A stretch of 64,000 nucleotides of DNA from an uncultured Clostridia bacterium (GTDB lineage: Bacteria > Bacillota > Clostridia > Oscillospirales > Ruminococcaceae), in contig CANQUJ010000007.1 in assembly GCA_947627005.1 (NCBI GenBank), positions 21,797 through 85,796 of the forward strand, read 5' to 3'. Of this stretch, positions 8,614 through 31,077 are shown in pieces; position 1 is the first letter of the stretch; the number at the start of each line of letters is the position of its first letter. Below the pieces are notes generated by a model, which had not been told where the DNA came from, made no database searches, and saw only the letters and a program-made list of their open reading frames with translations. Both the position numbers and the translations under genes were made by a program.

Positions 8614-8651
8614 AAAACCCCGCCGAATGCAGAGTCGGCGGGGGATTTTTT
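8614..8651 (+). terminator. Intrinsic terminator
   Basis: The stem ccccgccga (8618-8626) / tcggcgggg (8635-8643) is followed by a T-run. Confidence 0.8.
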
Positions 8652-8742: not shown

Positions 8743-8771
8743 TTGACACAAGGCTTTCACTTTGGTATAAT
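8743..8771 (+). promoter_or_regulatory. Consensus sigma-70 promoter TTGACA-17-TATAAT heading the 20-kb ABC locus
   Basis: Hexamers lie at 8743-8748 and 8766-8771. A 5' UTR of about 155 nt precedes the ATG at 8932. Confidence 0.7.
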
Positions 8772-8931
8772 AGACACATCAAGAACCGCAAGCGGGAATT
8801 TAATAGCTATAAACCGAAGCAAATATCTTTTTCAGAGTTGAAGAAACTGTGAAAAATGTATTTGCTTAAAGTCGTTTTGCAGCATTAAAGGGCTAAATTG
8901 TGCAAAATGACCAAAATTTCCGGGAGGCAAC

Positions 8932-9609
8932 ATGGCAGACATTTTAACGGCGAAGAACATCACGCGGGATTTTGTCATCGGCGACGGCAGCGTAGTCAAG
9001 GCCCTGCGCGGGGTGGACATAAACGTAGCCGAGGGCAAGCTTACGATACTTAAAGGGCGATCGGGCTCGGGCAAGACGACTTTGATAAACATTTTGGGCG
9101 CTCTTGACCGGCCGACCTCGGGCGAGGTTATCTTCGACGGAGAAGACATTACGAAGCTTTCGGACCGCAAGCGCGACGAGCTTCGGCGGTATCAGATGGC
9201 GTTTGTTTTTCAAAGCGTAGCGCTGATGAGTTCGATGACGGCGTATGAGAACGTCGATTTCGGGCTTAGGCTGGCGGGGGTCCCGGCAGACAAGCGAAAA
9301 GAGCGGGTCACGAAATGTCTCGAAGAAGTTGGTTTGGCGAAGAGAATCAACCACCGCCCGGGCGAGCTTTCGGGAGGAGAGCAGCAAAGGGTCGCGATAG
9401 CGAGGGCTTTGGCTCACGAGCCGAAGATAATCTTTGCGGACGAACCCACCGCCGAGCTTGATTCGGGAACGAGCCATCATATAGTCGAGCTTTTCAAAAA
9501 GCTCGTATTAGACGAGCAGATGACGATAGTTATGACGACGCACGACGTAAGCCTTCTTGAGATTGCGGACAGGGTTTACACTCTTGAGGACGGTGAGATC
9601 GTTGAATAA
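8932..9609 (+). CDS. ABC transporter ATP-binding protein, MacB/LolD/FtsE type (NBD 1)
   Basis: 225 aa. Motifs present: Walker A GRSGSGKTT, signature LSGGEQQR, Walker B IIFADEPTAELD and H-loop TTHD. Confidence 0.9.
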   Translation: MADILTAKNITRDFVIGDGSVVKALRGVDINVAEGKLTILKGRSGSGKTTLINILGALDRPTSGEVIFDGEDITKLSDRKRDELRRYQMAFVFQSVALMSSMTAYENVDFGLRLAGVPADKRKERVTKCLEEVGLAKRINHRPGELSGGEQQRVAIARALAHEPKIIFADEPTAELDSGTSHHIVELFKKLVLDEQMTIVMTTHDVSLLEIADRVYTLEDGEIVE

Positions 9610-10576
9610 AAAGAAAAAAGCGAAGCTTGAGCACGAAAAAGAGCTTATCGCCGAAAGCGAATACGCGATTGAGTGCGAAAACCTCGTTAAGATATATAAG
9701 ACCGACCAAATCGAGGTCGTGGCGCTTCAGGGGCTTGATTTGCAGGTAAAAAAAGGCGAGCTTGTCGCGATAGTCGGGACTTCGGGAAGCGGAAAATCTA
9801 CGCTTTTGAATATGCTTGGCGGGCTTGATAAGCCCTCTGCCGGAAGCCTTATAGTAAACGGCCGGAACCTTTTGAAGTTTACCGAAGAAGACTATATGAT
9901 CTATAAGCGCAACACCGTCGGGTTCGTATGGCAGAACAACGCGAGAAACCTCGTCCCTTATCTTACGGCGGTGCAGAACGTAGAGCTTCCGATGCTTTTA
10001 CAGGGCAGGAAAGAGCGGCGGCAGAAGGCGCTCGAACTTTTAGAGGCTGTCGGGCTTTCACACAGGATAAACTCGAGGCTCGACCAAATGTCGGGCGGCG
10101 AACAGCAAAGAGCGGCGATAGCTATCTCTCTTGCGAACGACCCGGCAATACTTCTGGCCGACGAGCCGACCGGATCGGTAGACACGAAGACATCGGACCA
10201 GTTATTGCAGGTCTTCAAAGACATCAACAAAAACCGGGGCGTGACCGTTGTTATAGTAACCCACGATCTTCGCCTTGCGAAACAGATAGACCGCGTAGTT
10301 TCCATTCGCGACGGAAGGACCTCGAGCGAGATCATTAAAAAGACTCACGCCGAGATCATGAGGGAATCGAAGGGATGGGACGAAGCGGAAGGAGCCGAAG
10401 CGGCCGAAGAGCAGCAGCCGGAAGAGATTTCGGAAGAGCTGGTGGTTTTGGACAGAACCGGGCGGCTGCAGATCCCGAAGGAATACCTTGAGGCGCTCGA
10501 TATCAAGGGCGGCTCGAAGGTCAAGGCGGACCTTGACGCCGAGAACGAGAGGATCTACATTCACAAGGCTCAATAA
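9602..10576 (+). CDS. ABC transporter ATP-binding protein, MacB type (NBD 2), with an acidic linker and a C-terminal AbrB/SpoVT-like tail
   Basis: Motifs present: Walker A GTSGSGKST, signature MSGGEQQR, Walker B ILLADEPTGSVD and H-loop VTHD. The tail reads LVVLDRTGRLQIPKEYLEALDIKGGSKVKADLDAENERIYI. The start is uncertain: candidates in frame are TTG 9602, GTG 9593 and TTG 9557, with no ATG nearby. The gene overlaps the upstream stop. Confidence 0.85.
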   Translation: MNKKKKAKLEHEKELIAESEYAIECENLVKIYKTDQIEVVALQGLDLQVKKGELVAIVGTSGSGKSTLLNMLGGLDKPSAGSLIVNGRNLLKFTEEDYMIYKRNTVGFVWQNNARNLVPYLTAVQNVELPMLLQGRKERRQKALELLEAVGLSHRINSRLDQMSGGEQQRAAIAISLANDPAILLADEPTGSVDTKTSDQLLQVFKDINKNRGVTVVIVTHDLRLAKQIDRVVSIRDGRTSSEIIKKTHAEIMRESKGWDEAEGAEAAEEQQPEEISEELVVLDRTGRLQIPKEYLEALDIKGGSKVKADLDAENERIYIHKAQ

Positions 10577-10641
10577 TCATCTTTATAACCCTAACGGAGA
10601 AAATATATCGTATTCAAAATATAACGAAAGGTGGATTCACT

Positions 10642-13566: not shown

Positions 13567-13582
13567 GGAGGGAGGAATTAAA

Positions 13583-14530
13583 ATGGCAAAGGCTAAGGAA
13601 CAAACCGCCGTTAAGCCGATCAACACCGAAAGCAAAGGGGCGTATACCTGGCATCTCATTAAACAGAACAAAGCCTGCTATCTGATGATGCTCCCGTTCT
13701 TCGCTCTCTTCACATTCTTCACGGTTATCCCCGTCGTTATGTCGCTTCCTTTGGGACTTACGAGCTTCAACCTCGTCCAATTCCCGAGATATATCGGTTT
13801 AACAAACTTCTATTCTCTGTTCGTAAACGACGACGTATTTCTTATCGCGATCAAAAACACCCTTATCTTCGCGATATTCACCGGCCCGTTCTCGTACGTT
13901 TTAAGCTTTATCCTCGCTTGGCTTATAAACGAAATGAACCCGGTACTAAAGGTCGTATTCACCTTTATCTTCTACGCTCCGTCGATGACCCCTTCGGCAT
14001 ACGTTATCTGGCAGCTCGTCTTCTCGGGCGACTCTTACGGATACCTCAACTCGGTTCTTATGGACCTCGGCATCATCAACTCGGCGAAACAATGGCTTAC
14101 CGACGTTACATATATGATGACGGTAGTTATTATAGTCCAGCTGTGGATGTCGATGGGCGCGGGCTTCCTTGCGCTTAGAGCGGGATTCCAAGGGATCGAC
14201 ACCGCGCTTTACGAAGCGGGCGCCATCGAAGGCATCCAGAACCGCTTCCAAGAGCTGTTTACAATAACCATCCCGGCGATGGGCCCTTCGCTTCTGTTCG
14301 CCGCCGTTCTCGCGATCTCCGGCGCGTTCACCGTCGGAACGGTAGGGCAGAACCTCTGCGGCCTGCCGTCGACCGGCTACGCGGTGCATACCGTTATGAA
14401 CCACGCGACCGACTACGGCTCGATAAGATATGAAATGGGCTACGCCTCGGCAATATGCTTCGTGCTCTTCGTTGTAATGATCGTAACGAATCAGGTCATC
14501 AGAAAAGTGCTTAGCAAATATTCGGATTAA
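13583..14530 (+). CDS. Sugar ABC transporter permease, MalF/LplB type
   Basis: 315 aa and 6 TM. The EAA-loop region reads ALYEAGAIEGIQNRFQELFTITIP. Confidence 0.9.
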   Translation: MAKAKEQTAVKPINTESKGAYTWHLIKQNKACYLMMLPFFALFTFFTVIPVVMSLPLGLTSFNLVQFPRYIGLTNFYSLFVNDDVFLIAIKNTLIFAIFTGPFSYVLSFILAWLINEMNPVLKVVFTFIFYAPSMTPSAYVIWQLVFSGDSYGYLNSVLMDLGIINSAKQWLTDVTYMMTVVIIVQLWMSMGAGFLALRAGFQGIDTALYEAGAIEGIQNRFQELFTITIPAMGPSLLFAAVLAISGAFTVGTVGQNLCGLPSTGYAVHTVMNHATDYGSIRYEMGYASAICFVLFVVMIVTNQVIRKVLSKYSD

Positions 14531-14545
14531 AGGAGGGGAATATAA

Positions 14546-15520
14546 ATGGCTGAAACCGCTGTAAAGAATCCCGTTATGGATTCGCTCGAAGCCGAGAACG
14601 CGAAGGCGCTTAAAAAGCTCAGAAAACGCCAGAAGAGAAAAGGCGACATTGAAAAAGCGCGAGTAAAAAAGTCCAAGGGCAAGCATATAAACGGCTCGCT
14701 CGCCGGCGATATCGCGATATTCATTCTTCTCTGCCTTTTGGGAATTTTCATGGTCTTCCCGCTGTACTACTCTATCGTTCAGTCGCTGAAGCCTATAAGC
14801 GAGCTCTTCGTATTCCCGCCTAAGCTTTATGTATTGCAGCCCACGGGCGAAAACTTCTCGAACCTCTTTAAAGTAGCGGGGAACCTTTGGGTCCCGTTCT
14901 CGAGATACGTTTTCAACTCCGTATTCGTAACGGTCGTCATCACTATAATGCACGTTTTTGTGGTTTGCTGCTGCGCGTACTGCCTTTCAAAGTGCCGCTT
15001 CCCCGGATACAACTTCTTAAACCAGCTTATAGTTATCTCGATGCTGTTCACCTCTACCGCAACGTGGATCATGCAGTTCGTCATTATGGCTAAGATGGGC
15101 ATGATCAACACCTACTGGGCGCTGATCCTTCCCAACGTAGCGACTTCGATGGGTCTGTACCTTATGAGGCAGAATATGTCGACTATAAACGACGCCGTTA
15201 TCGACGCCGCAAAGGTCGACGGTGCGGGCGCATTCCGCACCTGCTGGCAGGTCGTTATCCCCAACCAAAAGCCCGCCATCGCAACCCTTATAATCTTCGT
15301 GTTCCAAGGCGCATGGAACATTCAGGGCGGCGCTCTGGTTTATAAAGAAGACCTTAAAACCCTGCCCACCATTATGACCCAGCTTGCCGCCTCCGGTATC
15401 GCGAGACAGGGCATCATCTACGCTTCGGCGGTAGTTCTGATGATTCCTCCGCTTGTCATATTCCTCATCGCGCAGAGCAACGTTATGGAAACCATGGCCA
15501 ACTCCGGCATGAAGGATTGA
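14546..15520 (+). CDS. Sugar ABC transporter permease, MalG/LplC type, with a Lys-rich N-terminal extension of about 55 aa
   Basis: 324 aa. The EAA-loop region reads AVIDAAKVDGAGAFRTCWQVVIP. The N-terminus reads MAETAVKNP...KKLRKRQKRKGDIEKARVKKSKGK. Confidence 0.9.
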   Translation: MAETAVKNPVMDSLEAENAKALKKLRKRQKRKGDIEKARVKKSKGKHINGSLAGDIAIFILLCLLGIFMVFPLYYSIVQSLKPISELFVFPPKLYVLQPTGENFSNLFKVAGNLWVPFSRYVFNSVFVTVVITIMHVFVVCCCAYCLSKCRFPGYNFLNQLIVISMLFTSTATWIMQFVIMAKMGMINTYWALILPNVATSMGLYLMRQNMSTINDAVIDAAKVDGAGAFRTCWQVVIPNQKPAIATLIIFVFQGAWNIQGGALVYKEDLKTLPTIMTQLAASGIARQGIIYASAVVLMIPPLVIFLIAQSNVMETMANSGMKD

Positions 15521-15569
15521 TTGGTTTTAGCTTTATGACAGATAAAAATAAACTGAAAGGTGATAAGCG

Positions 15570-17237
15570 GTGATTAAAATGAAAATAAAAAAGCTGTTTT
15601 GTATACCGATCGCCGTTGCGGCCGCGGCCTCTGTAATGATAACTTCGGTCAGCGCGGCAGACCCGTATACAACCTATAACTACGACGCTTGGTGGAACGC
15701 GGTTCCCTCGCAATCGGGCTACGAAGTTATCGACACCGTAGATTCGAGAAGGATCGGGCTTGAAGCTTTGGCAGACCCTTCGAGTGAGTTCTTCATCAGC
15801 GAGACCGAGCCCACCACAATGTCGGATATGAAGGATTTCTTCATCACCGACGACGGCGACATCTACATCTGCGATACCGCCAACAACAGAATCATCAAGA
15901 CGGATATCGACTTTAATCTTCTCGCCTGCTATAAATACTTCCCCGGAAGCACCTCGAAGCATATTATAGTCGACGACCAAGGGAACGAGACGGAAGTCGA
16001 CGCCGACGAGCTTAAATCCCCCTACGGAATATTCGTCGACGAAGACGGGGTTATGTATATCGCGGACAGGGACAATCAGCGCGTTGTAAAATGCGTTGAA
16101 GAGACCAAGACCTCCGCGAGGATACTTACCGAATACTACCGGCCCGAGACCGAGCTTTACGATTCCCAGTCCTTCTATTGCACCAAAGTTACCGTCGACG
16201 CGGCAAAGAACGTATACGTTATCTGCCCGGCGGTAAATAAGGGAGCGATAATGTTCTCCGACTCCGGCTCCTTCGTTGGATACTACGGAACCAACCGAGT
16301 CGAGGTCACGGCCGAGGTCATCAGAAACAAACTGTGGAGAAAGATAGCCTCGGAAGAGCAGATCGCTTCTCTTACCAAGGCGACCCCTGTCGAATACGCC
16401 AACTTCGACATTGACAAGGAAGGGTTCATCTACACCGTAACCGAAGTCGCGAACGTTCAGACCGACGCCGTTAAAAAGCTTAACCCCGCGGGATATAACA
16501 TCCTTGAAAAGACGGCGGACAATAACTCGTTCGGCGACCAGATCTCGATTACATACAACGGAACCACCTACGCCACCCGTTTGACCGACATCGCGATCTC
16601 GGACGACAAGTTTATCAACATTCTCGACTATACCTCGGGAAGGATATTCCAGTATGACGAGCGCTGCAACCAGCTTCTTATATTCGGATTCGACCAGGAA
16701 GAGCAGCGCGGCGGATTCAACAACCCCAACGCGATAGACACTTACGGCGACAAGGTTTACATTCTTGACGGCCGAAACAACGACATTACCGTATTCGGGC
16801 TTACCGAATTCGGAAGATATGTTCACGAGGCCATAGCTCTTCACAACCAGGGCCTTTACGAAGAAGCCTACCAGATCTGGCAAGAGGTTTTAAAACGCGA
16901 CGGCGGCTTCTATATGGCGCTCGTCGGAACCACCAAGGCTCTTTACAATCAAGACAACTATAAAGACGCCATGGAATACGCAAAGCTTTCCTTCTATGCC
17001 AAGGAATACGACAGAGCGTTCGAGGCCAACCGCCAAGAGATGCTTAGAAACAACTTCACCCTTATCGTTTTGATTGTTCTCGCGCTGATAGTCGTTTGGA
17101 TAGTCATAAAGGTACTTAAGAAGAAGGGCAAGATCCCCCAGAAGCTTATCGCAACGGGGGTCGGAAAGATCGCCGACGCCGGCAAGAAGGCCGCCGAAAG
17201 CATTGTTTCAAAAGCAAAGAAAGGGGGCAAAAAATAA
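15570..17237 (+). CDS. Secreted NHL-repeat beta-propeller protein with a TPR-like helical region, a C-terminal TM anchor and a Lys-rich tail
   Basis: 555 aa with a signal peptide. NHL-like blades include GDIYICDTANNRIIK, GVMYIADRDNQRVVK and KVYILDGRNNDITVF. The TM is FTLIVLIVLALIVVWIVI, followed by a KKKGK...KKGGKK tail. Confidence 0.75.
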   Translation: MIKMKIKKLFCIPIAVAAAASVMITSVSAADPYTTYNYDAWWNAVPSQSGYEVIDTVDSRRIGLEALADPSSEFFISETEPTTMSDMKDFFITDDGDIYICDTANNRIIKTDIDFNLLACYKYFPGSTSKHIIVDDQGNETEVDADELKSPYGIFVDEDGVMYIADRDNQRVVKCVEETKTSARILTEYYRPETELYDSQSFYCTKVTVDAAKNVYVICPAVNKGAIMFSDSGSFVGYYGTNRVEVTAEVIRNKLWRKIASEEQIASLTKATPVEYANFDIDKEGFIYTVTEVANVQTDAVKKLNPAGYNILEKTADNNSFGDQISITYNGTTYATRLTDIAISDDKFINILDYTSGRIFQYDERCNQLLIFGFDQEEQRGGFNNPNAIDTYGDKVYILDGRNNDITVFGLTEFGRYVHEAIALHNQGLYEEAYQIWQEVLKRDGGFYMALVGTTKALYNQDNYKDAMEYAKLSFYAKEYDRAFEANRQEMLRNNFTLIVLIVLALIVVWIVIKVLKKKGKIPQKLIATGVGKIADAGKKAAESIVSKAKKGGKK

Positions 17238-17873
17238 ATGCTGTACGACATGAAGCCATGGCAATGGGTCAAGCACGTCATCTTCCACCCGACCGAAGGG
17301 TTTGAAGATATGAGATGGAAAAAGGCGGGCTCGCTTAAAATAGCGTTCTTCATCGTCTTCCTTCTCTTTGCCTCGCAGGTATTCTCTTCAAGATACGGCG
17401 GCTTCGCCTATAATACAAGAGCATACTCCGACGTCTTCAACATAATGCCTATCCTTGTTCAATCGGTTGCATACTACGCGACATGGGTCGTATCAAACTG
17501 GAGTATCTGCACCCTGTTCGACGGCGAAGGAAATATGCGCAGAGTTGCGATATATTCGGCATACGCGCTGGTTCCGTTTATAATCGGAAACTTCCTTTCG
17601 ACCGCTATATCCTATGGGCTTACCCTTGACGAAAGCATTTGGTACACCGCGATATACCAGGTCGGCCTTTGGTGGTCGGTTATACTGATGGTGTTCGGAA
17701 TGAAGGCATGTCATCAATACAACTTTACGATGACAATCGTCAGCATGATCTGCACCGTCGCGGGAATGGTTCTTATACTCGTTCTTCTCGCGCTGGTAAT
17801 GTCGCTGTTCCAGCAGGTATACGTTTTCTTCGCAACCATATACACCGAAATACTCTATCGAGTAAGAAGCTGA
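17238..17873 (+). CDS. Yip1-domain multi-pass membrane protein (YknW-like)
   Basis: 211 aa with 5 predicted TM segments and a Yip1-like layout. Its ATG directly abuts the upstream TAA (17235-17240 TAAATG). Confidence 0.65.
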   Translation: MLYDMKPWQWVKHVIFHPTEGFEDMRWKKAGSLKIAFFIVFLLFASQVFSSRYGGFAYNTRAYSDVFNIMPILVQSVAYYATWVVSNWSICTLFDGEGNMRRVAIYSAYALVPFIIGNFLSTAISYGLTLDESIWYTAIYQVGLWWSVILMVFGMKACHQYNFTMTIVSMICTVAGMVLILVLLALVMSLFQQVYVFFATIYTEILYRVRS

Positions 17874-17895
17874 CAAGGCAGAAAGTGAGTAAAAC

Positions 17896-20469: not shown

Positions 20470-21480
20470 ATGGCTGAAACAACCAACTCCGCCGAAAAGG
20501 TAGTTAAGGAAGTTAAAGTTAAGGCTAAGCCCGAAAAGCCCGCAAAAGAGCCCAAGGCGCCCAAGCCGCCGAAGGCCCCCAAGGGAATGAGAATAGCCTA
20601 TGAAAAGCGCAAATCGCTTTACGCATACGGCTTCCTCGCAATCTGGATCATCGGAACCATATACTTCTTCCTCAAACCCCTTTTGGTATCTCTGTGGTAT
20701 TCGTTCAACGTCACCGCCGTAGAGCTTGGCCACATGAAAACCACCTTCAACGGCATAGGCAACTACATAAGGGCCTTCCGTGAAGACACCGACTATACCG
20801 AAGCGCTTATCGCGATTTTGGGGCAGACCTTATGGCAGACCCCGCTGATCATCATCTTCTCGATCTTCATCGCGGTAATCCTCAACCAAAAATTCAAAGG
20901 AAGAACCTTTGCCCGCGCGGTATTCTTCCTGCCGGTCATCATCGCCACCGGCCCGGTTATAACCATCATCAACGGCGATATGGATACCTCGGGTTATTCG
21001 GGGGGCGCAGAGCAGTTCTCTACGATGTTTGAAACGGATATGACCGGCGCTCTGCTAAGCTTCCTCGGAGTGTACAACATAAGCGACAAGGTTACGGATA
21101 TGATCTCTACGGTAACATCGAACGTATTCAACCTTGTATGGGATTCGGGTATTCAGATAATCATCTTCCTTTCGGCATTGCAGAATATCCCCTATTCGGC
21201 GAAGGAAGCCGCCTCGATCGAAGGCGCCACCGCATGGGAGTTCTTCTGGAAGATTACCATTCCCTATATCAGCCCGATGATAGTTACCAACCTCATCTAC
21301 ACGATAGTCGACTCCTTCATCGACCCGGCCAACGGCGTTATGAAGCTCGTACTTGCAGAGGCTTCGGACTGGGAACACGGGTATTCGGCCGCGATGGCAT
21401 GGTCATACTTCATAATCGTTATCATCGCGCTCTGCATAGTCCTGCCGATACTCAACAAATTCGTCTACTACGAAGTATAA
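20470..21480 (+). CDS. Sugar ABC transporter permease, MalF type, with a Lys/Pro-rich N-terminal extension
   Basis: 336 aa. The N-terminus reads MAETTNSAEKVVKEVKVKAKPEKPAKEPKAPKPPKAPKG. The EAA-like loop reads AKEAASIEGATAWEFFWKITIP. The ATG abuts the upstream TAA. Confidence 0.85.
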   Translation: MAETTNSAEKVVKEVKVKAKPEKPAKEPKAPKPPKAPKGMRIAYEKRKSLYAYGFLAIWIIGTIYFFLKPLLVSLWYSFNVTAVELGHMKTTFNGIGNYIRAFREDTDYTEALIAILGQTLWQTPLIIIFSIFIAVILNQKFKGRTFARAVFFLPVIIATGPVITIINGDMDTSGYSGGAEQFSTMFETDMTGALLSFLGVYNISDKVTDMISTVTSNVFNLVWDSGIQIIIFLSALQNIPYSAKEAASIEGATAWEFFWKITIPYISPMIVTNLIYTIVDSFIDPANGVMKLVLAEASDWEHGYSAAMAWSYFIIVIIALCIVLPILNKFVYYEV

Positions 21481-21494
21481 AGGGGGGATATTGA

Positions 21495-22604
21495 ATGGCA
21501 ACCGCAAAAGAAGAAAGATTATTTGCAAAAGAGCGTGAAAAAGCTCTTAAAGAAAGGCAGAAGGCTTATAAAGCCGCAAGAAAAGCCGGGACTTTGGACG
21601 AGCGCCAGCTTGCGCCGGAACACCTTGCATATCTTCGCCGCAGGGCGATAGTTTCAAAGGTTTGGCCTATCTTCCGCTTCCTCATTCTGTTCGGCCTCTG
21701 CTTCGTTATTCTCTATCCCTTGATCTACATGTTCTCGACCGCGTTCCGCCCCAATATCCAGATGAACGACCCGTCGGTTATCTGGCTGCCCAAGTCGCTT
21801 ACCATAAGCAATATGGTCGACGTTTGGGAGACGATGGACTTCGGCATGACCCTTTGGAACACGATAAGAGTAAACATCGTCTGCTCCATCTTCTCGGTCG
21901 TAACCTGCGCGCTTACCGGCTACGGTCTCGCAAGATTCAACTTTAAGGGCAAGGGAATCTGCTTCGCGATACTGATCATGCAGATCATCGTTCCGCCGCA
22001 GATCACGGTTATCCCGCTCTATCTCCAGTGGGCGTTCTTTAGGGGCGCCGGGCTTGTAAAGCTTCTCTCCGGAATGGGTCTGACCTCTATCCTCGGCAAG
22101 AATATCGACGCTTCGGGCGAATATGTTTCGCTCATCAACGTTCCGATAGTTATGTACGCTCCCGCGCTGTTTGCGAACGGAATAAAATCCGGACTGTTCA
22201 TATTCATCTTCCGCCAGTTCTTCCGCGGGCTTCCGATCGAGCTTGAAGACGCCGCCTATCTTGACGGCTGCGGCCCCTTCAAAACCTTTATGAGAATAAT
22301 CGTTCCGAACGCCGCCTCTTCGTTCTTGACCGTCTTCCTCTTCTCGATCGTATGGTATTGGAACGACTACTATGTAAGCTCTACATTCTTTACCGACTTC
22401 CACACCGTTGCGCTTCAGCTTCAAAAGCTTTCGAGCACCCTCGACCAGCAGCTGTTCAGCGGCCAGCAGGTCGGCACAAGAAAGAAGATAGTCTGGCTCG
22501 AATCCGGCTGTCTGCTCTCTATCGCGCCTATACTCATTATGTATATCTTCCTTCAGAAATACTTCACCGAAGGCTTGGCGCGTTCCGGCTTGACCGGTAT
22601 GTAA
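21495..22604 (+). CDS. Sugar ABC transporter permease, MalG type, with a basic helical N-terminal extension
   Basis: 369 aa. The EAA-like loop reads LEDAAYLDGCGPFKTFMRIIVP. The N-terminus reads MATAKEERLFAKEREKALKERQKAYKAARKAG. Confidence 0.85.
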   Translation: MATAKEERLFAKEREKALKERQKAYKAARKAGTLDERQLAPEHLAYLRRRAIVSKVWPIFRFLILFGLCFVILYPLIYMFSTAFRPNIQMNDPSVIWLPKSLTISNMVDVWETMDFGMTLWNTIRVNIVCSIFSVVTCALTGYGLARFNFKGKGICFAILIMQIIVPPQITVIPLYLQWAFFRGAGLVKLLSGMGLTSILGKNIDASGEYVSLINVPIVMYAPALFANGIKSGLFIFIFRQFFRGLPIELEDAAYLDGCGPFKTFMRIIVPNAASSFLTVFLFSIVWYWNDYYVSSTFFTDFHTVALQLQKLSSTLDQQLFSGQQVGTRKKIVWLESGCLLSIAPILIMYIFLQKYFTEGLARSGLTGM

Positions 22605-22645
22605 ACCCTTTCGGGCTTACCCGCAAATTTCTTTAAATACTCAAA

Positions 22646-22683
22646 GCCTGCCGTCTTTTGCGGACGGCAGGCGCTTTGTTTAA
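22646..22683 (+). terminator. Intrinsic terminator-like hairpin (possibly partial read-through)
   Basis: The stem gcctgccgtc / gacggcaggc is followed by GCTTTGTTT. Confidence 0.6.
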
Positions 22684-22704
22684 ACGCATGGGAGTGTTGA
22701 AATT

Positions 22705-24270
22705 ATGAAAAGAATATTCGCGATACTCCTGTGCGGGGTTTTGATCCTTTCCGCCTGCGCCGAAAAGCCGGGCGACGAGGGCGAAACTTCGGCGACCGAG
22801 CCCGGGATATCTCTATACACCGAGCCGACGGAGGAGTCTTCGGAGACGACTCCGCAGACTTCGGCGGAGCCCGCGATATCGAGCTATAACGAGATACCGG
22901 CCGCGAAGATCGAGCTTGAGCGGGAGGAATTTGAATCGCTTATCGAGGCCGAGAGCGCCTCTTTAAGCGACGGAGCGCAGATCTCGGACAGCCGCGAGGG
23001 CTATTCCGGCGCGGGGTATGTCTCGTCTTCGCCGAGCGGGGTCGTTATTTTAGAGGCCGAGCCGCTTCCGCGGCAGCACTACAACATAACCATTCGGGCG
23101 GCTTCGGATTCAAAAGTCGGCGGGCGGCTTTATATAAACGGCTACCCGCGCGGGGAATTTGAGCTTTCGGGGAGCGGGGAGTTCGAGGCGTTGAGGTTCG
23201 ACAATATCCTTCTCGGCGAAAGCGCCCAGATAGGGATATCCGACCTTGACGGCCCGGCGGATATAGACTGCGTTCTGATCGAAAGCTCGGAGGAGATATA
23301 TTCCCTTAGCTATGACCCGGACGAAGAGCTTTCAAATCCACAAGCCGACGACAGCGCGAAGGCGCTTTACGGCTATCTTTTAAGCTGCTACGGAAAGAAA
23401 ATAATCAGCGGGCAGATAACCTCGCAGGGGACCGACGCGGAGATTGAAAGCATTTTCCGCGAGACGGGGCGCCGCCCCGCGATACGCTTCGGCGAGCTTA
23501 TGGACTATTCGGCAGGAGAGGATTCGGGGGATATAGAGCTCGCGAAAAAATGGGCGCAGAGCGGCGGAATAGTCGGGTATTCATGGTATTGGACTATAAA
23601 CGGCTCATGCTATAAAGAAAAATCCGGCTTTAACCTCTCAAACGCCGTCACCGACCTTGACATCGCCGCGATGGAGAGCGAAGCCCTTGCGCTTAGATAC
23701 GCCGACGGCGCGGTTTCGGCCGAGACGCTCGCGATAGTCGACGGAATAGACAAGGTTGCGGCAAAACTCTTAGAACTTAAAGACATCGGCGCGGCGGTTT
23801 TGTTCCGCCCACTGCCCGAGGCCGGCAGCGGAATGTTCTGGTGGTCGGCCGAGGACGAGAGCTATCTTTGGCTCTATAACCTCATCTACGAGAGAATGAC
23901 CCTTTATTGGGGGCTTAACAACATTATTTGGGTATGGAACGGCCAGAGCGCCGAGCTTTACCCCGGGGACGACAGGGCGGATATAATCTCTCTCGATATC
24001 TACTATTCCGAGGGGTCGGTCCTGCCGTCGACGAGCGGCGTCAATATGATGCTCGCCGCAAGGGGGATATCCCAAAACAAGATGATCGCGATGAGCGAGT
24101 GCTCTTCGCTGCCCTCGCCCGATTCGGCTTTGGCGGATAACGCCCTTTGGGGCTTTTGCTCGGCCGGGACCGGGGACTATGCATGCGGCGGAAAATTTAT
24201 GTTGCCCGCCGAATGGGTGGCGTTTTATAACAGCGAAACAGTTGTCACGCTGGACGAAATCGAATACTGA
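22705..24270 (+). CDS. Lipoprotein with a CBM-like module and a GH26-like (beta-mannanase family) catalytic domain
   Basis: 521 aa with lipobox LILSAC and a Ser/Thr/Glu linker. The CBM-like segment reads AESASLSDGAQISDSREGYSGAGYV. GH26-like motifs are VLFRPLPEAGSGMFWW (Glu codon 23818-23820) and IAMSECSS (Glu codon 24097-24099). Confidence 0.6.
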   Translation: MKRIFAILLCGVLILSACAEKPGDEGETSATEPGISLYTEPTEESSETTPQTSAEPAISSYNEIPAAKIELEREEFESLIEAESASLSDGAQISDSREGYSGAGYVSSSPSGVVILEAEPLPRQHYNITIRAASDSKVGGRLYINGYPRGEFELSGSGEFEALRFDNILLGESAQIGISDLDGPADIDCVLIESSEEIYSLSYDPDEELSNPQADDSAKALYGYLLSCYGKKIISGQITSQGTDAEIESIFRETGRRPAIRFGELMDYSAGEDSGDIELAKKWAQSGGIVGYSWYWTINGSCYKEKSGFNLSNAVTDLDIAAMESEALALRYADGAVSAETLAIVDGIDKVAAKLLELKDIGAAVLFRPLPEAGSGMFWWSAEDESYLWLYNLIYERMTLYWGLNNIIWVWNGQSAELYPGDDRADIISLDIYYSEGSVLPSTSGVNMMLAARGISQNKMIAMSECSSLPSPDSALADNALWGFCSAGTGDYACGGKFMLPAEWVAFYNSETVVTLDEIEY

Positions 24271-24326
24271 CGGTAGAACGCGGAAAATATATTACTCAAA
24301 GTTTTATAAAATACTTTTCTGCGGTA

Positions 24327-24355
24327 TTGATTTATTCCGCGTTTTTCAATATAAT
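24327..24355 (+). promoter_or_regulatory. Internal promoter TTGATT-17-TATAAT
   Basis: Hexamers lie at 24327-24332 and 24350-24355, 48 nt before the adaptor gene. Confidence 0.55.
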
Positions 24356-24402
24356 ATATCTGTATATTTTCGGCCTTTTTTATTTTTCACGGGAGGATCG
24401 CT

Positions 24403-25449
24403 ATGAAATCTACAAGAACCGTTTTGATCTCGCTTGCCTTAGCGGCGGCGACCGCGCTTAGCGGCTGTTATTTTTTGCCGGAGGAGGAAGAGCTTTTAGA
24501 GGCGCCGGTAGTTAAAGAAAGCGAAGTTTCTTATATCACCACCACTGCCGAGCTTAAAGACATTACCAGCCAAATCCTTACCCCGGGAACAATCGCCTCG
24601 GGTACCGAATATAACGCAAGATTCAGCGAAACGGGCGGAAACATCAAGGCGGTGTATGTTTCGGCGGGGGAGAGCGTAGAAAAAGGCCAGCTTCTTGCCG
24701 AATTTGACACCTATGATTTAGACAAGCAGATCGAGCTTAAAGAGCTTGAGGTATACCGCGAGCAGCTTGAATACGACATCGCCGTTGAAAAACACGAATC
24801 GGAGACTGTTAAGGCGAAGGAGCAGCTCGACGTTCAGCTTGAGCAGAACGAGCTTGACAAGCTTTACGCCGAACGCGAGGCCGCGAAGCTTTATTCCGAA
24901 GTCAGCGGAACGGTTTCTTATGTTTTGACCTGCTCTCCCGGCGACTGGGTAAACCCCGGGGTGACCGTCGTCACGGTTATAGATATCACCGACCTTTATA
25001 TTAAAATCGACCCGGAAAAGGATATCGGCGAATTTTTGATCGGCAGACCGATAACGATTCGCTATAACGGCGAATATTTCGACGGAACGATTATTCGCAA
25101 CAAAAGCGGCCGCCAATGGAGCGAAGAGGCCGCCGGCCCTCTTGTAGACGAAAACGGAGAGGACATTTTGGCCGAAGAATCGGAGGATATAGTCGTCAAA
25201 TTCAACGACATCATTCCCGAAAGCTCGGCGGTCGGGAATATAGCCGACACGCTTTTGATCCTTGACAAGCGCGAGAATGTTATCGTCATCTCGGCGAACC
25301 TCGTCAAAAAAGTCAACGGAGTGGACGTCGTTTATCTTCTTAAGAACAACGAGCGGGTGCAGGTAAACGTCACCAAGGGGCTTCAGAGCGGCTCGATGGT
25401 AGAGATCACCTCGGGCCTTGAACCGGGCGACGAAATAATCATCAGATAG
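24403..25449 (+). CDS. HlyD/MacA-type periplasmic adaptor lipoprotein (YknX-like)
   Basis: 348 aa with lipobox LSGC. A lipoyl-like motif (GESVEKGQLLAEFD), a coiled-coil hairpin and beta-barrel segments are present. Confidence 0.8.
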   Translation: MKSTRTVLISLALAAATALSGCYFLPEEEELLEAPVVKESEVSYITTTAELKDITSQILTPGTIASGTEYNARFSETGGNIKAVYVSAGESVEKGQLLAEFDTYDLDKQIELKELEVYREQLEYDIAVEKHESETVKAKEQLDVQLEQNELDKLYAEREAAKLYSEVSGTVSYVLTCSPGDWVNPGVTVVTVIDITDLYIKIDPEKDIGEFLIGRPITIRYNGEYFDGTIIRNKSGRQWSEEAAGPLVDENGEDILAEESEDIVVKFNDIIPESSAVGNIADTLLILDKRENVIVISANLVKKVNGVDVVYLLKNNERVQVNVTKGLQSGSMVEITSGLEPGDEIIIR

Positions 25450-25473
25450 GCGCGTTATCTCGGAGGACAGACT

Positions 25474-28296
25474 ATGCTTACACTACTTTTCCGCAAAATG
25501 CGCAATACCAAATGGATGGTTATTTGCCTTTTGATCGGGTTTATTATGGCGACTGCGATGACGAGCACGATACCGATATATATGCACGCCTCGCTTCAGC
25601 GAATGCTCGTTAAAGATATGCAGGCGTATCAGGAAGAAACCGGGGAATACCCGGGGGTTTATTCGGTCTCGAAAACCTTTATCGCCGGAACCAACGCCGC
25701 GAGGCAGCACGACATAACCCTTGACGTTTACGCCCGCGCGGTAAATCGGTTCAACAGCCTTATGGTCCCGTATCTTACATATAAGTGCACCGCTTCGGAC
25801 CCTTACCTTTACGTCTCTAACATCGAGACTCAAAGCCTTGCGACCATAAAGCTCGGCGGTATGACCGACATCGGCGATCACGTCAAGATAACATCGGGAA
25901 GAATGTTCAAAGAGGGCAAGAACGAGCAGGGCGTATACGAGGTCATCTGCACCGAGCGCTCGCTTCAGCTTTCGCAGCTCGTAAAAGACCAGGTATACGA
26001 GATCAAGAACGTTTTGGACAGCGATTCGCCCGATTCAATCAAGATCAAGATCGTCGGGACCTTCGGCCCCGCGAACGAGACCGACACTTATTGGTCGGAG
26101 GGGCTTTCAACCTATGACAACACCTTCTTCGCCGACTTCGACACCCTTTTGAACGACATTATCTTTACCGGCGTCGTAAACTTGAACTCGGCCGAAGCGA
26201 GGATAATCATCGACTACCAGAATATGGATATGAACGTCATCGAGCACGTTCAGAACAGCCTCGAGTCGCAGGCCGAGCAATACAGCGAAGAAGCCTGCAC
26301 CTTTAAGGTCCCGGCGCAGGCGGTATTGGAAAGCTATGCCGATAAGGCCGCTTCGCTTAGATATATTCTTCTGATGCTCGACATACCGGTAGTTTTGATG
26401 CTGGTGTTCTATCTGTTTATGGTCTCGCAGCTGAACATCGAGTCGGAGCGAAACGAGATCGCGATGTTAAAATCGCGCGGCGCTTCGTCTTGGCAGATTT
26501 TGCGGATCTACGCCTACGAAACCCTTATTTTGGGCGCAATTTCGGCGCTTGTCGGGCCGTTTGTCGGCCTCGGGCTTTGCAATATCCTCGGCGTTTCCAA
26601 CGGCTTCCTCGAATTCGTAAGGCGGCCCGCCCTTAACGCAAAGCTTTCGCTCGCGCCGTTTGTATACGCGCTGATCGCGGTCGCGGTGTTCTTTATAACC
26701 ACTCTGCTGCCGATTATCCCGGCTTCAAGGGTTTCTATCGTCGCGCATAAACAATCCAAGGCCCACGCGCAGAAAAAGCCCTTCTGGCAAAGGTCCTTCC
26801 TCGATATCGCGTTTATCGTTCTGCCGGTGGTGTGGCTTTGGTGGTATAACCGCCTCAACCAAAACCTTATAATGCAGGGGATAGTCGACACTTCGGCGAC
26901 TATGAACCCGCTTATGTTCGCAAGCTCGACTGTATTTATCCTCGGCGCGGCGCTTTTGTGCGTAAGGCTTTACCCCTATTTCATCCGCCTTATCTATGCG
27001 ATAGGAAGAAAAAGGTGGTCGCCCGCGGCGTATATTTCTTTGAACAATATCGGGCGCTCCTCGACCGGCCGCGAAAAGTTTATAATGATATTCCTGATCT
27101 TGACGGTCGCGCTCGGAATCTTCTCGGCGAACACCGCTCGGGCGATAAACCGCAACACCGAAGAGAGAATACGTTATAATTTGGGCGCAGACGCGGTTAT
27201 CGCCGAGGCATGGAAGACCTCGAGGGTAAGAGTATACGACGAAGAGACCGGGGAGGAGACCTCTACCACCCAATACACCGAGCCGGACTTCTCGAAGTAT
27301 TCCTCTCTGCCCGGGGTGGTTACCGCTACGCCGGTGTTTACCCGCGATTCGGTTCAGATGAGATACGACGAGTCGACCAAGACCGACTGCCGCCTTATGG
27401 CGATAATCCCGTATCAGTTCGCAAAGGTCGCGTGGTTCCGCTCCGATCTTCTTCCGACCCACATCAACCGCTATATAAACGCGCTGAACGAATGTCCGAA
27501 CGGCGCTATCGTCTCGTCCTCCTTCGCCGAAAAATACGAGGGCAAGCTTAAGCCCGGCGACGTTATCGAGGTCAAGTGGGCGAGAAACTCTTGGATAGAG
27601 GCGACGGTTGTCGCGATAGTCGACTATTGGCCCAGCCTTAACCCATACGACAAAAATTCCGCCGGCGAATACCGCGACTTTGTGGTTATGAATTACGACT
27701 ACATTAACGTTATGACCATAAGCGAGCCGTACGAAGTCTGGCTCGACCTTGAGGACAACGCGGATATCTCTAAGCTTTATAACGGCGTAGTAAGCGCCGA
27801 CATTACCGCCACAAGGCTTGACGTAGCCTCGCAGCTTATAATCGCCTCCAAGACCGACGCGGTACTCCAAGGGGTCAACGGCGCGCTCACCCTCGGGTTT
27901 ATAACCATAATGGCGATGTGCTTTATCGGCTTCTTGATCTACTGGATCCTTTCGATAAAGGGCAGAACGCTTCAGTTCGGCATTTTAAGGGCGATGGGAA
28001 TGTCGTTCAGAGAGATTATTTCTATGATAATCTACGAACAAATTCTCGTCTCGGGGGTATCCATCTTCCTCTCGATAATCATCGGCGGCATAGCCTCGGA
28101 TATATTCGTGCCGCTGTTCCAGGTGCTCTATAACGTAACCGAGCAGGTTCCGCCGTTCAGGGTCGTCGCCCAGCGAAGCGACTACTACAAGCTTTACGCC
28201 ATTGTCGCGATAATGCTTTTGGTAGGATTTATCGTCATCGCGCGGCTTATCAAGAAGATAAATATCAACAAGGCCCTTAAGCTCGGCGAAGACTAA
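25474..28296 (+). CDS. ABC transporter permease with two FtsX/MacB-type halves and two large extracytoplasmic domains
   Basis: 940 aa and about 10 TM. Each half is one TM, a ~250-aa loop and a 3-TM FtsX-like bundle. Confidence 0.85.
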   Translation: MLTLLFRKMRNTKWMVICLLIGFIMATAMTSTIPIYMHASLQRMLVKDMQAYQEETGEYPGVYSVSKTFIAGTNAARQHDITLDVYARAVNRFNSLMVPYLTYKCTASDPYLYVSNIETQSLATIKLGGMTDIGDHVKITSGRMFKEGKNEQGVYEVICTERSLQLSQLVKDQVYEIKNVLDSDSPDSIKIKIVGTFGPANETDTYWSEGLSTYDNTFFADFDTLLNDIIFTGVVNLNSAEARIIIDYQNMDMNVIEHVQNSLESQAEQYSEEACTFKVPAQAVLESYADKAASLRYILLMLDIPVVLMLVFYLFMVSQLNIESERNEIAMLKSRGASSWQILRIYAYETLILGAISALVGPFVGLGLCNILGVSNGFLEFVRRPALNAKLSLAPFVYALIAVAVFFITTLLPIIPASRVSIVAHKQSKAHAQKKPFWQRSFLDIAFIVLPVVWLWWYNRLNQNLIMQGIVDTSATMNPLMFASSTVFILGAALLCVRLYPYFIRLIYAIGRKRWSPAAYISLNNIGRSSTGREKFIMIFLILTVALGIFSANTARAINRNTEERIRYNLGADAVIAEAWKTSRVRVYDEETGEETSTTQYTEPDFSKYSSLPGVVTATPVFTRDSVQMRYDESTKTDCRLMAIIPYQFAKVAWFRSDLLPTHINRYINALNECPNGAIVSSSFAEKYEGKLKPGDVIEVKWARNSWIEATVVAIVDYWPSLNPYDKNSAGEYRDFVVMNYDYINVMTISEPYEVWLDLEDNADISKLYNGVVSADITATRLDVASQLIIASKTDAVLQGVNGALTLGFITIMAMCFIGFLIYWILSIKGRTLQFGILRAMGMSFREIISMIIYEQILVSGVSIFLSIIIGGIASDIFVPLFQVLYNVTEQVPPFRVVAQRSDYYKLYAIVAIMLLVGFIVIARLIKKININKALKLGED

Positions 28297-28328
28297 GCCG
28301 AAGCGCGAGGCCGAATCGGAGAGATTTT

Positions 28329-28739
28329 ATGAAAAGCTTTTTCCGCTTTCACCCCGTCGCCTCGGTTATCGCGATAATCGCCGCGTATACCGTTATCCCC
28401 GGCGCGATAGTGGTCTTATCGACCGCCTTATTCGGGGACAGCCCCGCGCTTAATAAGCTTTTGCTGATATATTCTCTTATAATAGAGCTTCTTCTCTGTC
28501 TTTTTGCCGACCGCTTTTTTCTCGCCGTCCTGCCGTTTGTGATATCGGTTTTGGGGGTGCTCGGCTGCGAGGGGGTATACCTTGCCGCGCAGGTCGCGGT
28601 GCAGTCGGGCGGAAGCGGAAAGGCCGCCTTTGCGGCGACCTCTTACGGGGTTATCCTCTTCGGCGCAGAGTTTGTCGGCGTGGCCTTCGGGCTTATCGCC
28701 TACGCGATAGTCGCGCTTATAAAAAGATTCCGGGAATGA
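28329..28739 (+). CDS. Small 4-TM membrane protein, unknown function
   Basis: 136 aa, hydrophobic throughout. It lies 32 nt after the permease gene on the same strand. Confidence 0.5.
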   Translation: MKSFFRFHPVASVIAIIAAYTVIPGAIVVLSTALFGDSPALNKLLLIYSLIIELLLCLFADRFFLAVLPFVISVLGVLGCEGVYLAAQVAVQSGGSGKAAFAATSYGVILFGAEFVGVAFGLIAYAIVALIKRFRE

Positions 28740-30419: not shown

Positions 30420-31077
30420 ATTTATATCCCATTCCTCTCAAGGTAACGATAAGGTCGCGATATGGGCCGAGGCTGTTGCGGAGCATTTTTATATGAGTGT
30501 CGACGGTGCGGTCGTCGCCGTAGAAATCGAAGCCCCAGACTTCTTCGAGAAGCTTCTCGCGAGACATCGCGATGTTCATATTTTTAGCGAGGAAGAAGAG
30601 GATGTCGTATTCCTTCGGGGTCATCTGGGCGCGCTTGCCGTCGATGATGACCTCTCTCGCCGCAAAGTTTATAACCAGCCCCTTATAGGTCAATATATCC
30701 TCGGCGCCGTCGCGGCTTCCGCGCTTGATGACAACCTTTATCCTCGCCATAAGCTCTTTGGGCGAAAAGGGCTTTACGACGTAGTCGTCTATCCCGACCT
30801 CGAATCCGAAGAGCTTGTCGTATTCCTCGCCCCTTGCCGAAAGCATTATGACCGGAATGTTTTTGATTTTCTTGATCTCTTTGCAGGCGGAGTAGCCATC
30901 AAGCTTGGGCATCATAATGTCCATAACAACGCAGTCGAAGTCTTTGTCGGCCCTTACTTTTTCGACGGCCTCCATGCCGTCGGCCGCCTCTTCGACCTCG
31001 TATCCCTCAAAGGTTGCGTATTCCTTTACGACCTCGCGAATCTTCGCCTCGTCGTCTACTATCAAAATCCTTGCCAT
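30403..31077 (-). CDS. OmpR/PhoB-family response regulator
   Basis: 224 aa. The receiver shows ILIVDDE and VVMDIMMPKLDG. The winged-helix shows TVDTHIKMLRNSL. It overlaps the kinase gene by 17 nt. Confidence 0.92.
   Translation of the reverse strand: MARILIVDDEAKIREVVKEYATFEGYEVEEAADGMEAVEKVRADKDFDCVVMDIMMPKLDGYSACKEIKKIKNIPVIMLSARGEEYDKLFGFEVGIDDYVVKPFSPKELMARIKVVIKRGSRDGAEDILTYKGLVINFAAREVIIDGKRAQMTPKEYDILFFLAKNMNIAMSREKLLEEVWGFDFYGDDRTVDTHIKMLRNSLGPYRDLIVTLRGMGYKFDDIR

Follow-up and report, generated by a model that had tools for sequence, protein, structure and literature searches.

The window analysed here is a 64,000-nucleotide (nt) stretch of contig CANQUJ010000007.1 from an uncultured Clostridia bacterium, whose nearest named relatives are uncultured Oscillospiraceae and Clostridia of animal guts. 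It carries a run of 14 forward-strand genes that includes parts of two kinds of ATP-binding cassette (ABC) system: an eight-gene set with two MalFG-type permease pairs and a single giant binding protein (genes 3-10), and the ATPases, adaptor and fused permease of a pump of the type VII kind (genes 1, 2, 12 and 13). Coordinates are positions in the window, genes are numbered 1-14 in the order of the forward-strand open reading frames (ORFs), and related loci are cited by L numbers where they need to be told apart. An earlier note on this DNA had listed the 14 genes with their coordinates, junctions and domains, and all of these were confirmed (Table 1), the domains with Pfam. Independent gene calls on a near-identical metagenomic contig (L001, 98-100% identity) match ours, including the 8-nt overlap between genes 1 and 2, and the intergenic junctions range from -8 to +132 nt.

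Table 1. Genes and transcription signals of the locus, by position in the window (aa, amino acids; GH, glycoside hydrolase family).
Feature	Position	Strand	Basis or remark
Promoter, extended -10 sigma-70, TTGACA-N14-TGG-TATAAT	8743..8771	+	12/12 consensus match
Gene 1, a-type ABC ATPase, 225 aa, without additional domain	8932..9609	+	ABC_tran E 3e-34
Gene 2, b-type ABC ATPase, 324 aa, acidic linker and C-terminal AbrB/MazE-like domain	9602..10576	+	ABC_tran E 9e-32
Gene 3, giant binding protein, 974 aa	10642..13566	+	SBP_bac_8/1 at residues 607-873
Gene 4, permease F1, MalF/UgpA-like	13583..14530	+	BPD_transp_1; UgpA-like
Gene 5, permease G1, MalG/UgpE-like	14546..15520	+	BPD_transp_1; UgpE-like E 2e-27
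Gene 6, NHL beta-propeller protein	15570..17237	+	NHL (Pfam)
Gene 7, Yip1-family polytopic membrane protein	17238..17873	+	Yip1 E 1e-15
Gene 8, DUF5696 protein	17896..20469	+	PF18952 E 5e-147
Gene 9, permease F2	20470..21480	+	BPD_transp_1
Gene 10, permease G2	21495..22604	+	BPD_transp_1
Terminator-like hairpin, 11-bp stem, 8 G-C pairs	22646..22672	+	ends conserved operon
Gene 11, GH26 lipoprotein, lipobox LSAC	22705..24270	+	Glyco_hydro_26 E 6e-30
Weaker promoter-like site	24327..24355	+	10/12; 5' of adaptor gene
Gene 12, lipoprotein membrane-fusion adaptor, HlyD/MacA/YknX-like, lipobox LSGC	24403..25449	+	HlyD_D23, Biotin_lipoyl_2
Gene 13, fused double-FtsX type VII permease, 940 aa, YbbP-like	25474..28296	+	two FtsX stretches
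Gene 14, 136-aa protein, three hydrophobic segments	28329..28739	+	no Pfam match

An eight-gene core is colinear in Oscillospiraceae and Ruminococcus

A species-level collection (one genome per species) was scanned with a DUF5696 alignment, which matched at least 575 stretches; the best 79 loci all belong to Oscillospiraceae or Ruminococcus and include R. albus AR67 and R. callidus ATCC 27760. Conservation was then counted by tblastn of the 14 window proteins against these 79 and other related loci. Genes 3-10 are colinear in 85 of 85 comparable Oscillospiraceae/Ruminococcus loci, and among the loci evaluable for each component we found the binding protein in 76/76, F1 in 77/77, G1 in 78/78, the NHL protein in 80/80, the Yip1 protein in 81/82, F2 in 84/84 and G2 in 81/81. 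The genes flanking this core vary between lineages. GH26 on the forward strand is confined to the window's clade, and in L003 two other genes stand between G2 and GH26; GH26 thus appears from its distribution to be a clade-specific insertion, an additional enzyme of that clade. Gene 14 has homologues only in L001 and, at 36% identity, in L021, and it is not conserved and probably lies outside the system. The notion that all 14 genes form one conserved unit was not borne out: two of them (GH26 and gene 14) are clade-specific, and gene 10 is the last gene of the conserved operon.

The core was also sought beyond the family, by a protein-level search of annotated plasmids. On plasmid pNP243 of Butyrivibrio fibrisolvens the order is GH43, giant binding protein, F, G, NHL, YIP1, DUF5696, F, G, and on a plasmid of Paenibacillus cellulosilyticus (NZ_CP054609.1, L171) it is UgpC, giant binding protein, F, G, NHL-YIP1 fusion, DUF5696, F, G. 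The core proteins of these two loci are 24-47% identical to those of the window, and the binding protein aligned over its whole length. The Paenibacillus ATPase, which is encoded 5' of the binding protein, is of the MalK type by Pfam (ABC_tran, OB_MalK and TOBE_2), and in both loci the search within 10 kb of the core found no gene for an adaptor, an FtsX permease or a LolD-type ATPase. This distribution suggests that the core is far older than the Oscillospiraceae. Across the loci, genes neighbouring the core include GH26, GH43 and GH67. The DUF5696 family comprises ~4,100 clusters at 50% identity, and a literature search found no publication on DUF5696 or this gene set, no characterisation of either and no already characterised homologous locus.

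The core has two permease pairs, one binding protein and an NHL-Yip1 unit

Gene 3 starts with a signal peptide or anchor that has no lipobox, followed by an extension of ~600 aa ahead of its C-terminal CUT1-type binding domain. Only residues 607-873 match binding-protein families (SBP_bac_8, E 6e-21, and SBP_bac_1), and the nearest solved structure is Lin1841 (5ysb, E 2e-16). Per-orthologue Pfam scans detected the carbohydrate-binding module (CBM) family CBM_35 in the extension of 7 of 16 orthologues (best E 3.5e-7). The EAA loops of all four permeases (YEAGAIEG in gene 4, DAAKVDGAG in gene 5, KEAASIEGAT in gene 9 and EDAAYLDGCG in gene 10) are at least 95% conserved among 91 sequences and are alike in Butyrivibrio and Paenibacillus, while the two pairs are divergent, with 21-24% identity from pair to pair. 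The locus thus holds, twice over, the two BPD_transp_1 subunits with an EAA loop that make up a CUT1 importer, together with an extracytoplasmic family-1 solute-binding protein. The earlier note had described two MalFG-type pairs, one giant binding protein and no MalK/MsmX-type ATPase, and this description stands: among the window ORFs scanned, no MalK/MsmX/UgpC-type ATPase with a C-terminal OB/TOBE domain was found, and one may lie elsewhere in the genome. The remaining scanned ORFs are housekeeping genes.

The NHL protein has a signal peptide and a C-terminal membrane anchor, with hydrophobic segments at residues 9-27 and 498-516, and the start codon of the Yip1 gene abuts its stop codon. 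In the Paenibacillus core locus, NHL repeats are followed by a Yip1 domain in a single 719-aa protein (L171 7644-9803, Pfam), a Rosetta-stone fusion which argues that genes 6 and 7 act as one unit. The earlier note had counted Yip1 as the fourth part of a scattered YknWXYZ/MacAB-like system. The ATPases, adaptor and permease of that system are present, and Yip1 does not belong with them: it accompanies the NHL/DUF5696/MalFG core in 81/82 loci and also where the 10 kb around the core hold no pump gene, Paenibacillus has it in one chain with NHL, and the Paenibacillus pump operon described below has no Yip1 gene. We therefore rejected Yip1 as an equivalent of YknW, since its linkage to the core, together with the fusion, indicates that it is not a displaced YknW. 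By the same gene-order evidence, Yip1 appears to be a core component that works with the propeller.

The DUF5696 protein is modelled with a glycosidase-like fold

An AlphaFold2 model of gene 8 (predicted local distance difference test, pLDDT, 69.6; predicted template-modelling score, pTM, 0.75) consists of an N-terminal helix, a disordered acidic linker, a beta domain, a (beta/alpha)8 barrel and a C-terminal beta sandwich. Its best Foldseek matches were 5opq (E 4e-27), 5wzq (E 1e-21), 5a55 (E 4e-13) and YicI (E 3e-10), with GH129 first, followed by GH101, GH36, GH31 and GH97. For the GH129, GH101 and GH31 glycosidases the E-values run from 4e-27 to 1e-10, and identity in the structural alignments is only 12-14%. 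Three aspartates of the barrel (D658, D718 and D720) are invariant in DUF5696. The protein thus models as a retaining-glycosidase-like protein with a GH129/GH101/GH31-like fold, tethered to the membrane by its N-terminal helix and the acidic linker. It shares a three-part architecture with GH129 (the alpha-N-acetylgalactosaminidase NagBb and the 3,6-anhydro-D-galactosidase ZgGH129), GH101 and GH31 enzymes, but differs from them in having no detectable sequence relationship, a membrane tether and translational coupling to a permease gene. The DUF5696 stop codon abuts or overlaps the F2 start codon in the window and in L003, L005, L047, L088, L089 and L171, an arrangement suggesting that DUF5696 is translationally coupled to the second permease pair.

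The ATPase pair heads the operon in over half of the species

Genes 1 and 2, which share 41% identity, both retain the Walker A and Walker B motifs, the catalytic glutamate and the H-loop. As the earlier note had it, the 5' end of the locus encodes two MacB/LolD-type ATPases: their best-scoring models are LolD, MacB, FtsE and DevA, and they also match MJ0796, LolD, YtrE and YbbA. Gene 1 scores best against the LolD/DevA/FtsE models, its second-best family being DevA, a glycolipid-exporter ATPase, and gene 2 against LolD and MacB, with an equal score against mycobacterial OppD/DppD importer ATPases. Gene 2 also has a weak MazE_antitoxin match at residues 298-330.

The C-terminal tail of gene 2 (residues ~277-324, 10430-10576) carries an AbrB/MazE-like swapped-hairpin motif beginning GRLQIPKEYLEALDIK, which is also found on ATPases in Paenibacillus (L172 12908-13783) and Streptomyces (L173 8908-9873), from Clostridia to Streptomycetaceae. 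AbrB/MazE-like domains normally dimerise, and we know of no described role for such a tail on an ABC ATPase; by analogy it may link two b subunits or serve as a regulatory module.

The pair is encoded upstream of the core in 37 of 67 species; a large R. callidus-like clade lacks it at that position, as do a few members of the other clade. Homologous pump operons were recovered by tblastn of gene 13 against plasmids. One of them (L172) lies on the same P. cellulosilyticus plasmid as the core, 153 kb away, and encodes in order an ATPase (243 aa), an adaptor, a double-FtsX permease with MacB_PCD (971 aa), a second ATPase (291 aa) and a family-1 binding protein. Its first ATPase shares 52% identity with gene 1 and 41% with gene 2, and its second shares 58% with gene 2 over the full length, including the AbrB-like tail, and 42% with gene 1. 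The permease aligns end to end with gene 13 at 30% identity, and the adaptor has 25% identity to gene 12. On plasmids of Streptomyces (L173) and Kitasatospora (L174), a-type and b-type ATPases likewise flank large FtsX permeases, with 49-50% identity to gene 1 and 46% to gene 2, the b-type ones bearing the same tail motif. Because the a and b ATPases flank FtsX permeases in Paenibacillus and Streptomycetaceae, we take genes 1 and 2 to be the motors of the gene 12-13 system, and the pair appears to be an old, dedicated one for fused FtsX permeases. On sequence and homologous operons alike, genes 1 and 2 would supply the cognate LolD/MacB-group ATPases of a type VII system. A reading of the two as motors of the MalFG pairs only, which had rested on operon position, conserved EAA loops and OppD-like scores, was downgraded on account of these flanking arrangements.

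Three details of the homologous operons deserve mention. The Paenibacillus operon ends, 5 nt past ATPase b, with a 520-aa family-1 (sugar-type) lipoprotein binding protein (L172 13789-15351), which shows no specific similarity to the core binding proteins; a binding protein is unusual in a MacB-like operon and may be a sign that the role of this pump family has to do with carbohydrates. In Streptomyces, two consecutive FtsX-like permeases of 900-1100 aa (L173 2875-8911) lie between the ATPases, no adaptor is annotated, and a lytic polysaccharide monooxygenase gene is near the operon. In Kitasatospora, one FtsX-like permease and a distantly FtsX-like hypothetical protein, again of 900-1100 aa, occupy that interval (L174 2383-8693), also with no adaptor annotated.

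The adaptor and fused permease lie behind the core in two subclades

Gene 12 has an HlyD/MacA-type adaptor architecture; its MacA match is weak, and YknX_C/BSH_YknX are weak or faint in the precomputed annotation of its orthologues. AlphaFold2 modelled gene 13 (pLDDT 74.9) as a chain of ten helices that bears two extracytoplasmic domains of ~220 aa each (residues 62-278 and 574-784), one between helices 1 and 2 of each repeat, as in the FtsX fold of type VII permeases. Foldseek placed Escherichia coli YbbP first (9ge6_A, E 1e-19), then BceB, MacB and LolC/E, a sequence search of the PDB with gene 13 gave no match, and MacB_PCD is present in gene 13 homologues.

In 82 Oscillospiraceae loci centred on a gene 13-type permease, the adaptor gene lies directly 5' of the FtsX permease in 75 of 76, and an ABC ATPase is encoded within 10 kb of the pair in 1 of 82, at 30% identity. 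The core lies directly 5' of the pair in 28 of 46 evaluable loci, a count inflated by resampling of one human-gut lineage; elsewhere the pair is free-standing among housekeeping genes. On a tree of the four permeases, this adjacency falls in two separate subclades; it is also seen in a common human-gut lineage, and only two deep lineages carry all parts. The link that the earlier note drew between the pump and the MalFG/binding-protein genes finds support in these comparative counts, and their adjacency is not peculiar to the window genome: the ATPase pair sits in the core operon in 37/67 species, and the adaptor-permease pair adjoins its 3' end in at least two lineages.

A HAMP/HisKA histidine kinase (28989-30419, reverse strand) and an OmpR-type response regulator (30403-31077, reverse strand) converge on the 3' end of the pump genes; both are present in L001, and they do not stand beside the pump in other lineages. 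A BceAB-type peptide-sensing pump under this kinase and regulator was considered and rejected: the two extracytoplasmic domains of gene 13 and its closest resemblance, to YbbP, speak against it, as does the lack of conservation of the two-component genes beside the pump.

The conserved operon is bounded by a perfect promoter and a hairpin

By chance, 0 matches to the 12/12 extended -10 promoter would be expected across the window. In 69 related loci, a perfect TTGACA-N14/15-TGnTATAAT site lies within 520 nt 5' of the first operon gene; this gene encodes ATPase a in 37 of them and the binding protein in the other 32. Altogether 2.85 Mb of related loci contain 124 such sites (~0.04 expected), and the other 55 include positions immediately 5' of rplJ in L005 and adhE in L035; plausibly, the exact consensus marks highly expressed genes in these bacteria. 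Since it stands behind such a promoter, the core is probably expressed at a high level. The window has further perfect consensus promoters at 6743-6771 and 63369-63397.

At the other end, the 111 nt around the window hairpin (22600-22710) have a folding energy of -37.5 kcal/mol (z = -4.0). Of 82 loci, 69 have a similar hairpin behind G2, among them loci where the adaptor-permease pair is next. Upstream of the adaptor gene, the best promoter match reaches only 8-11 of 12 positions (84 loci). The earlier statement that the 14 genes follow one promoter therefore holds by position, with its 12/12 site, and not as a single transcript, which the hairpin after gene 10 and the separate weaker promoter before gene 12 make unlikely. 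Judged by these signals, genes 1-10 would form the conserved operon, with GH26 and genes 12-14 as separate units that may receive read-through.

A leader RNA or riboswitch in the ~160-nt 5' leader was rejected: an Rfam scan of the entire 64 kb found no family at gathering score, and similarity of the leader is only lineage-deep. In loci L005, L023-L037 and L050 of the Ruminococcus clade, a conserved palindrome AAACGTTT (for example cgTAAACGTTTtc) lies ~5-15 nt 5' of the -35 hexamer and resembles a catabolite-responsive element half-consensus; the window's clade lacks it and has tttttGTGAAAAtTGTG in its place.

Neighbouring genes

Just upstream of the operon, positions 6825-8570 of the forward strand encode a 581-aa protein that matches no Pfam family. 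It begins with a signal peptide and has, at the C-terminus, NPETG, a hydrophobic segment and KKH, which is a sortase-type wall anchor. It has its own perfect promoter 5' (6743) and a bidirectional terminator 3' (8618-8643), and from these features it is probably a major surface protein. Genes without a Pfam match also lie upstream of the operon in L003 and L004. Downstream, 31991-33562 (forward strand) encodes a 523-aa protein that joins an N-terminal HTH_3 (XRE-type) domain to a full M18 aminopeptidase (E 4e-123), an uncommon fusion. Threonyl-tRNA synthetase genes of Firmicutes are often preceded by a T-box leader; the window holds such a synthetase gene at 2478-4241 (reverse strand) and gave no Rfam match.

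Discussion

The core resembles CUT1 importers (MalEFGK2, UgpBAEC and the MsmX-sharing systems of Firmicutes) in its MalF/UgpA and MalG/UgpE permeases with EAA loops, in its family-1 binding domain, nearest to Lin1841, and, in the Paenibacillus copy, in its MalK-type ATPase. It differs in having two non-identical permease pairs for a single binding protein, in the ~600-aa CBM-bearing extension and missing lipid anchor of that protein, in three obligatory extras (NHL propeller, Yip1 and DUF5696) and in the lack of a MalK-type gene in the operon.

For the pump, YbbAP-TesA offers a precedent, a type VII transporter coupled to an extracytoplasmic hydrolase (PMC12646458). Gene 13 is like YbbP, a single-chain, ten-helix double-FtsX permease with two extracytoplasmic domains. 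YbbA, however, is homodimeric and encoded beside YbbP, whereas the present locus has two different ATPases ~15 kb away in another operon, one of them with an AbrB/MazE-like tail, as well as an added adaptor lipoprotein, and a hydrolase partner here would be conjectural.

In Bacillus YknWXYZ, as outlined in PMC4887032 (and in Yamada et al. 2012, cited there), YknZ is a single four-helix FtsX protein that dimerises, YknY is the one ATPase, and the four genes form one operon. Both systems have an adaptor (gene 12 here), a MacB/LolD-like ATPase, an FtsX-type permease, a Yip1-family protein nearby and a Gram-positive host. In our locus, by contrast, the permease is a fused ten-helix chain, there are two ATPases ~15 kb away in place of one adjacent ATPase, and Yip1 is tied to the importer core instead of being encoded with the adaptor, ATPase and permease.

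MacAB-TolC, Spr0693-0695 and DevBCA share with the pump an adaptor, an FtsX-type permease with a MacB-like core domain and ATPases of the LolD/MacB/DevA group; unlike them, it has no outer-membrane partner, a fused asymmetric permease, heterodimeric ATPases and split genes. Opp/Dpp importers (OppD and OppF) likewise have two different ATPases, encoded by adjacent and overlapping genes and likely to pair as a heterodimer, but the locus has no Opp-type permeases or peptide-binding protein, and the homologues of its ATPases sit in FtsX-permease operons.

From the anatomy of the locus, the orthology of its genes, their linkage counts and their folds, we lean towards the reading that two ABC machines have their genes interleaved here: an eight-gene glycan importer core and a four-part type VII mechanotransducer. 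The first (genes 3-10) would be a highly expressed surface device that holds a glycan at the membrane, trims it and imports it through two channels. Substrate would pass from the binding protein to F1G1, DUF5696 would be coupled to the second pair, F2G2, and NHL-Yip1 would form a membrane scaffold. Power for the permease pairs would come most likely from a MalK/MsmX-type ATPase encoded elsewhere, or additionally from genes 1 and 2. Its substrate may be a plant-type glycan or the oligosaccharides of one, as hinted by the CBM35-like modules, by neighbouring GH26, GH43 and GH67 genes and by hosts that degrade fibre.

The second machine would consist of the a/b ATPase heterodimer (genes 1 and 2), the gene 13 permease and the gene 12 lipoprotein adaptor. 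In the Oscillospiraceae, its ATPase genes would have been cut from the permease and put at the head of the importer operon under its promoter, leaving an adaptor-permease pair without an ATPase gene that repeatedly settled just past the operon terminator. That the motor genes moved into the importer operon, and that the membrane genes repeatedly came to stand behind it, suggests that the pump works with the importer, and it may act on, or together with, the extracytoplasmic components of the importer. Such action could be the mechanical work on the propeller, DUF5696 and GH26 proteins that the earlier note proposed. The likely function is thus to capture, trim and import a glycan in coupling with a mechanotransducer of type VII, by a mechanism that we can only infer.

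A number of points weigh against this interpretation. The core occurs without nearby pump genes in Butyrivibrio, in Paenibacillus and in the large Ruminococcus callidus-like clade, and the adaptor-permease pair is free-standing among housekeeping genes in many genomes, so that the machines could be functionally independent; adjacency in just two lineages could be drift. In the clade without the ATPase pair beside the core, a search with gene 2 did not locate the pair, the 120 matches listed being all at least 80% identical. A DUF5696 profile search against solved structures gave no significant match to a solved glycosidase and no usable alignment, and D658, D718 and D720 are guesses as catalytic residues. 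The binding protein has no lipid anchor that would hold it at the surface. All of the support is computational, and function and substrate class are predictions.

The ATPase pair could instead have taken the MalK-type slot and drive the two MalFG-type pairs, alone or besides the pump, a shared or displaced motor that we regard as doubtful. It would account for the placement of the pair exactly 5' of the binding-protein gene, within the promoter-to-terminator unit, in 37/67 species, in most of which no FtsX permease lies in the downstream flank, and the pair was never seen beside a free-standing adaptor-permease pair in Oscillospiraceae. Four intact EAA loops are four ATPase docking sites to fill, no MalK-type gene was found in the window, and gene 2, which scores equally against OppD/DppD and LolD, has a C-terminal domain, as importer ATPases often do. 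Yet homologues of both ATPases sit in FtsX-permease operons of two phyla, and the same Paenibacillus plasmid supplies the core with a MalK-type ATPase of its own. Firmicutes CUT1 importers, moreover, commonly share an MsmX-type ATPase encoded elsewhere, and we know of no ATPase that serves both type I and type VII membrane domains. Rather unlikely, in our view, is that the systems are mere neighbours, with the pump a YknXYZ/MacAB-like exporter or a means of antimicrobial-peptide resistance and the arrangement a product of rearrangement and hitch-hiking on a strong promoter. The core without pump genes nearby, the common free-standing adaptor-permease pairs, and the terminator and separate weak promoter between core and pair would all fit this, as would the convergent kinase and regulator that follow the pump genes in the window. 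It is hard to see, though, without joint use, why ATPase genes moved into another transporter's operon would be kept across 37 species; at least two lineages have brought the adaptor-permease pair to the 3' end of the core, the kinase and regulator are not conserved beside the pump, and the Paenibacillus pump operon ends with a sugar-type binding protein.

Nor do we think it at all probable that the system is concerned with a glycopolymer or glycolipid of the cell's own surface, through recycling, remodelling or export of the DevBCA kind, and not with dietary glycans. Such envelope housekeeping is in keeping with its presence in every one of ~80 species sampled, with housekeeping neighbours (RNase Y, ribosomal protein genes, dpaA and homoserine dehydrogenase), with a perfect promoter class shared with the sites 5' of rplJ (L005) and adhE (L035), with DevA as the second-best family of gene 1 and with the putative highly expressed sortase-anchored surface protein encoded just upstream. 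The CBM35-like modules and the GH26, GH43 and GH67 neighbours suggest plant glycans, however, all named cultured hosts degrade plant fibre, and BPD_transp_1 permeases with a binding protein are, to our knowledge, importers in all characterised cases. Returning to two interleaved machines, we hold it possible, though improbable, that importer core and split pump make up one physical supercomplex in which the ATPase pair drives permease and adaptor work on the importer's surface parts. The glycan chain could be fed or stripped at an NHL-Yip1/DUF5696 station, or the giant unanchored binding protein could be loaded, and the ATPase pair might dock on the MalFG-type pairs too.

The systems are of known kinds, a CUT1 importer and a type VII pump, and what is new is their unusual composite organisation. 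An ABC importer that has two permease pairs to a single binding protein, an NHL-Yip1 unit and an enzyme-like protein in translational coupling with a permease is out of the ordinary. The pump defines an old, two-phylum type VII ABC family with a dedicated a/b ATPase heterodimer, one partner of which has an AbrB-like tail. With pump motor genes wired into an importer operon, these bacteria present a natural experiment, a testable case for cooperation of two ABC architectures; if the supercomplex were true, it would be the first type VII mechanotransducer coupled to a type I importer, or the first instance of ATPases shared between both architectures. Among the hosts of the core are important fibre-degrading bacteria of the rumen, the gut and soil (Ruminococcus albus, R. 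callidus, Butyrivibrio fibrisolvens and Paenibacillus cellulosilyticus), and its substrate, once known, would fill a gap in our picture of glycan uptake by Gram-positive fibre degraders.

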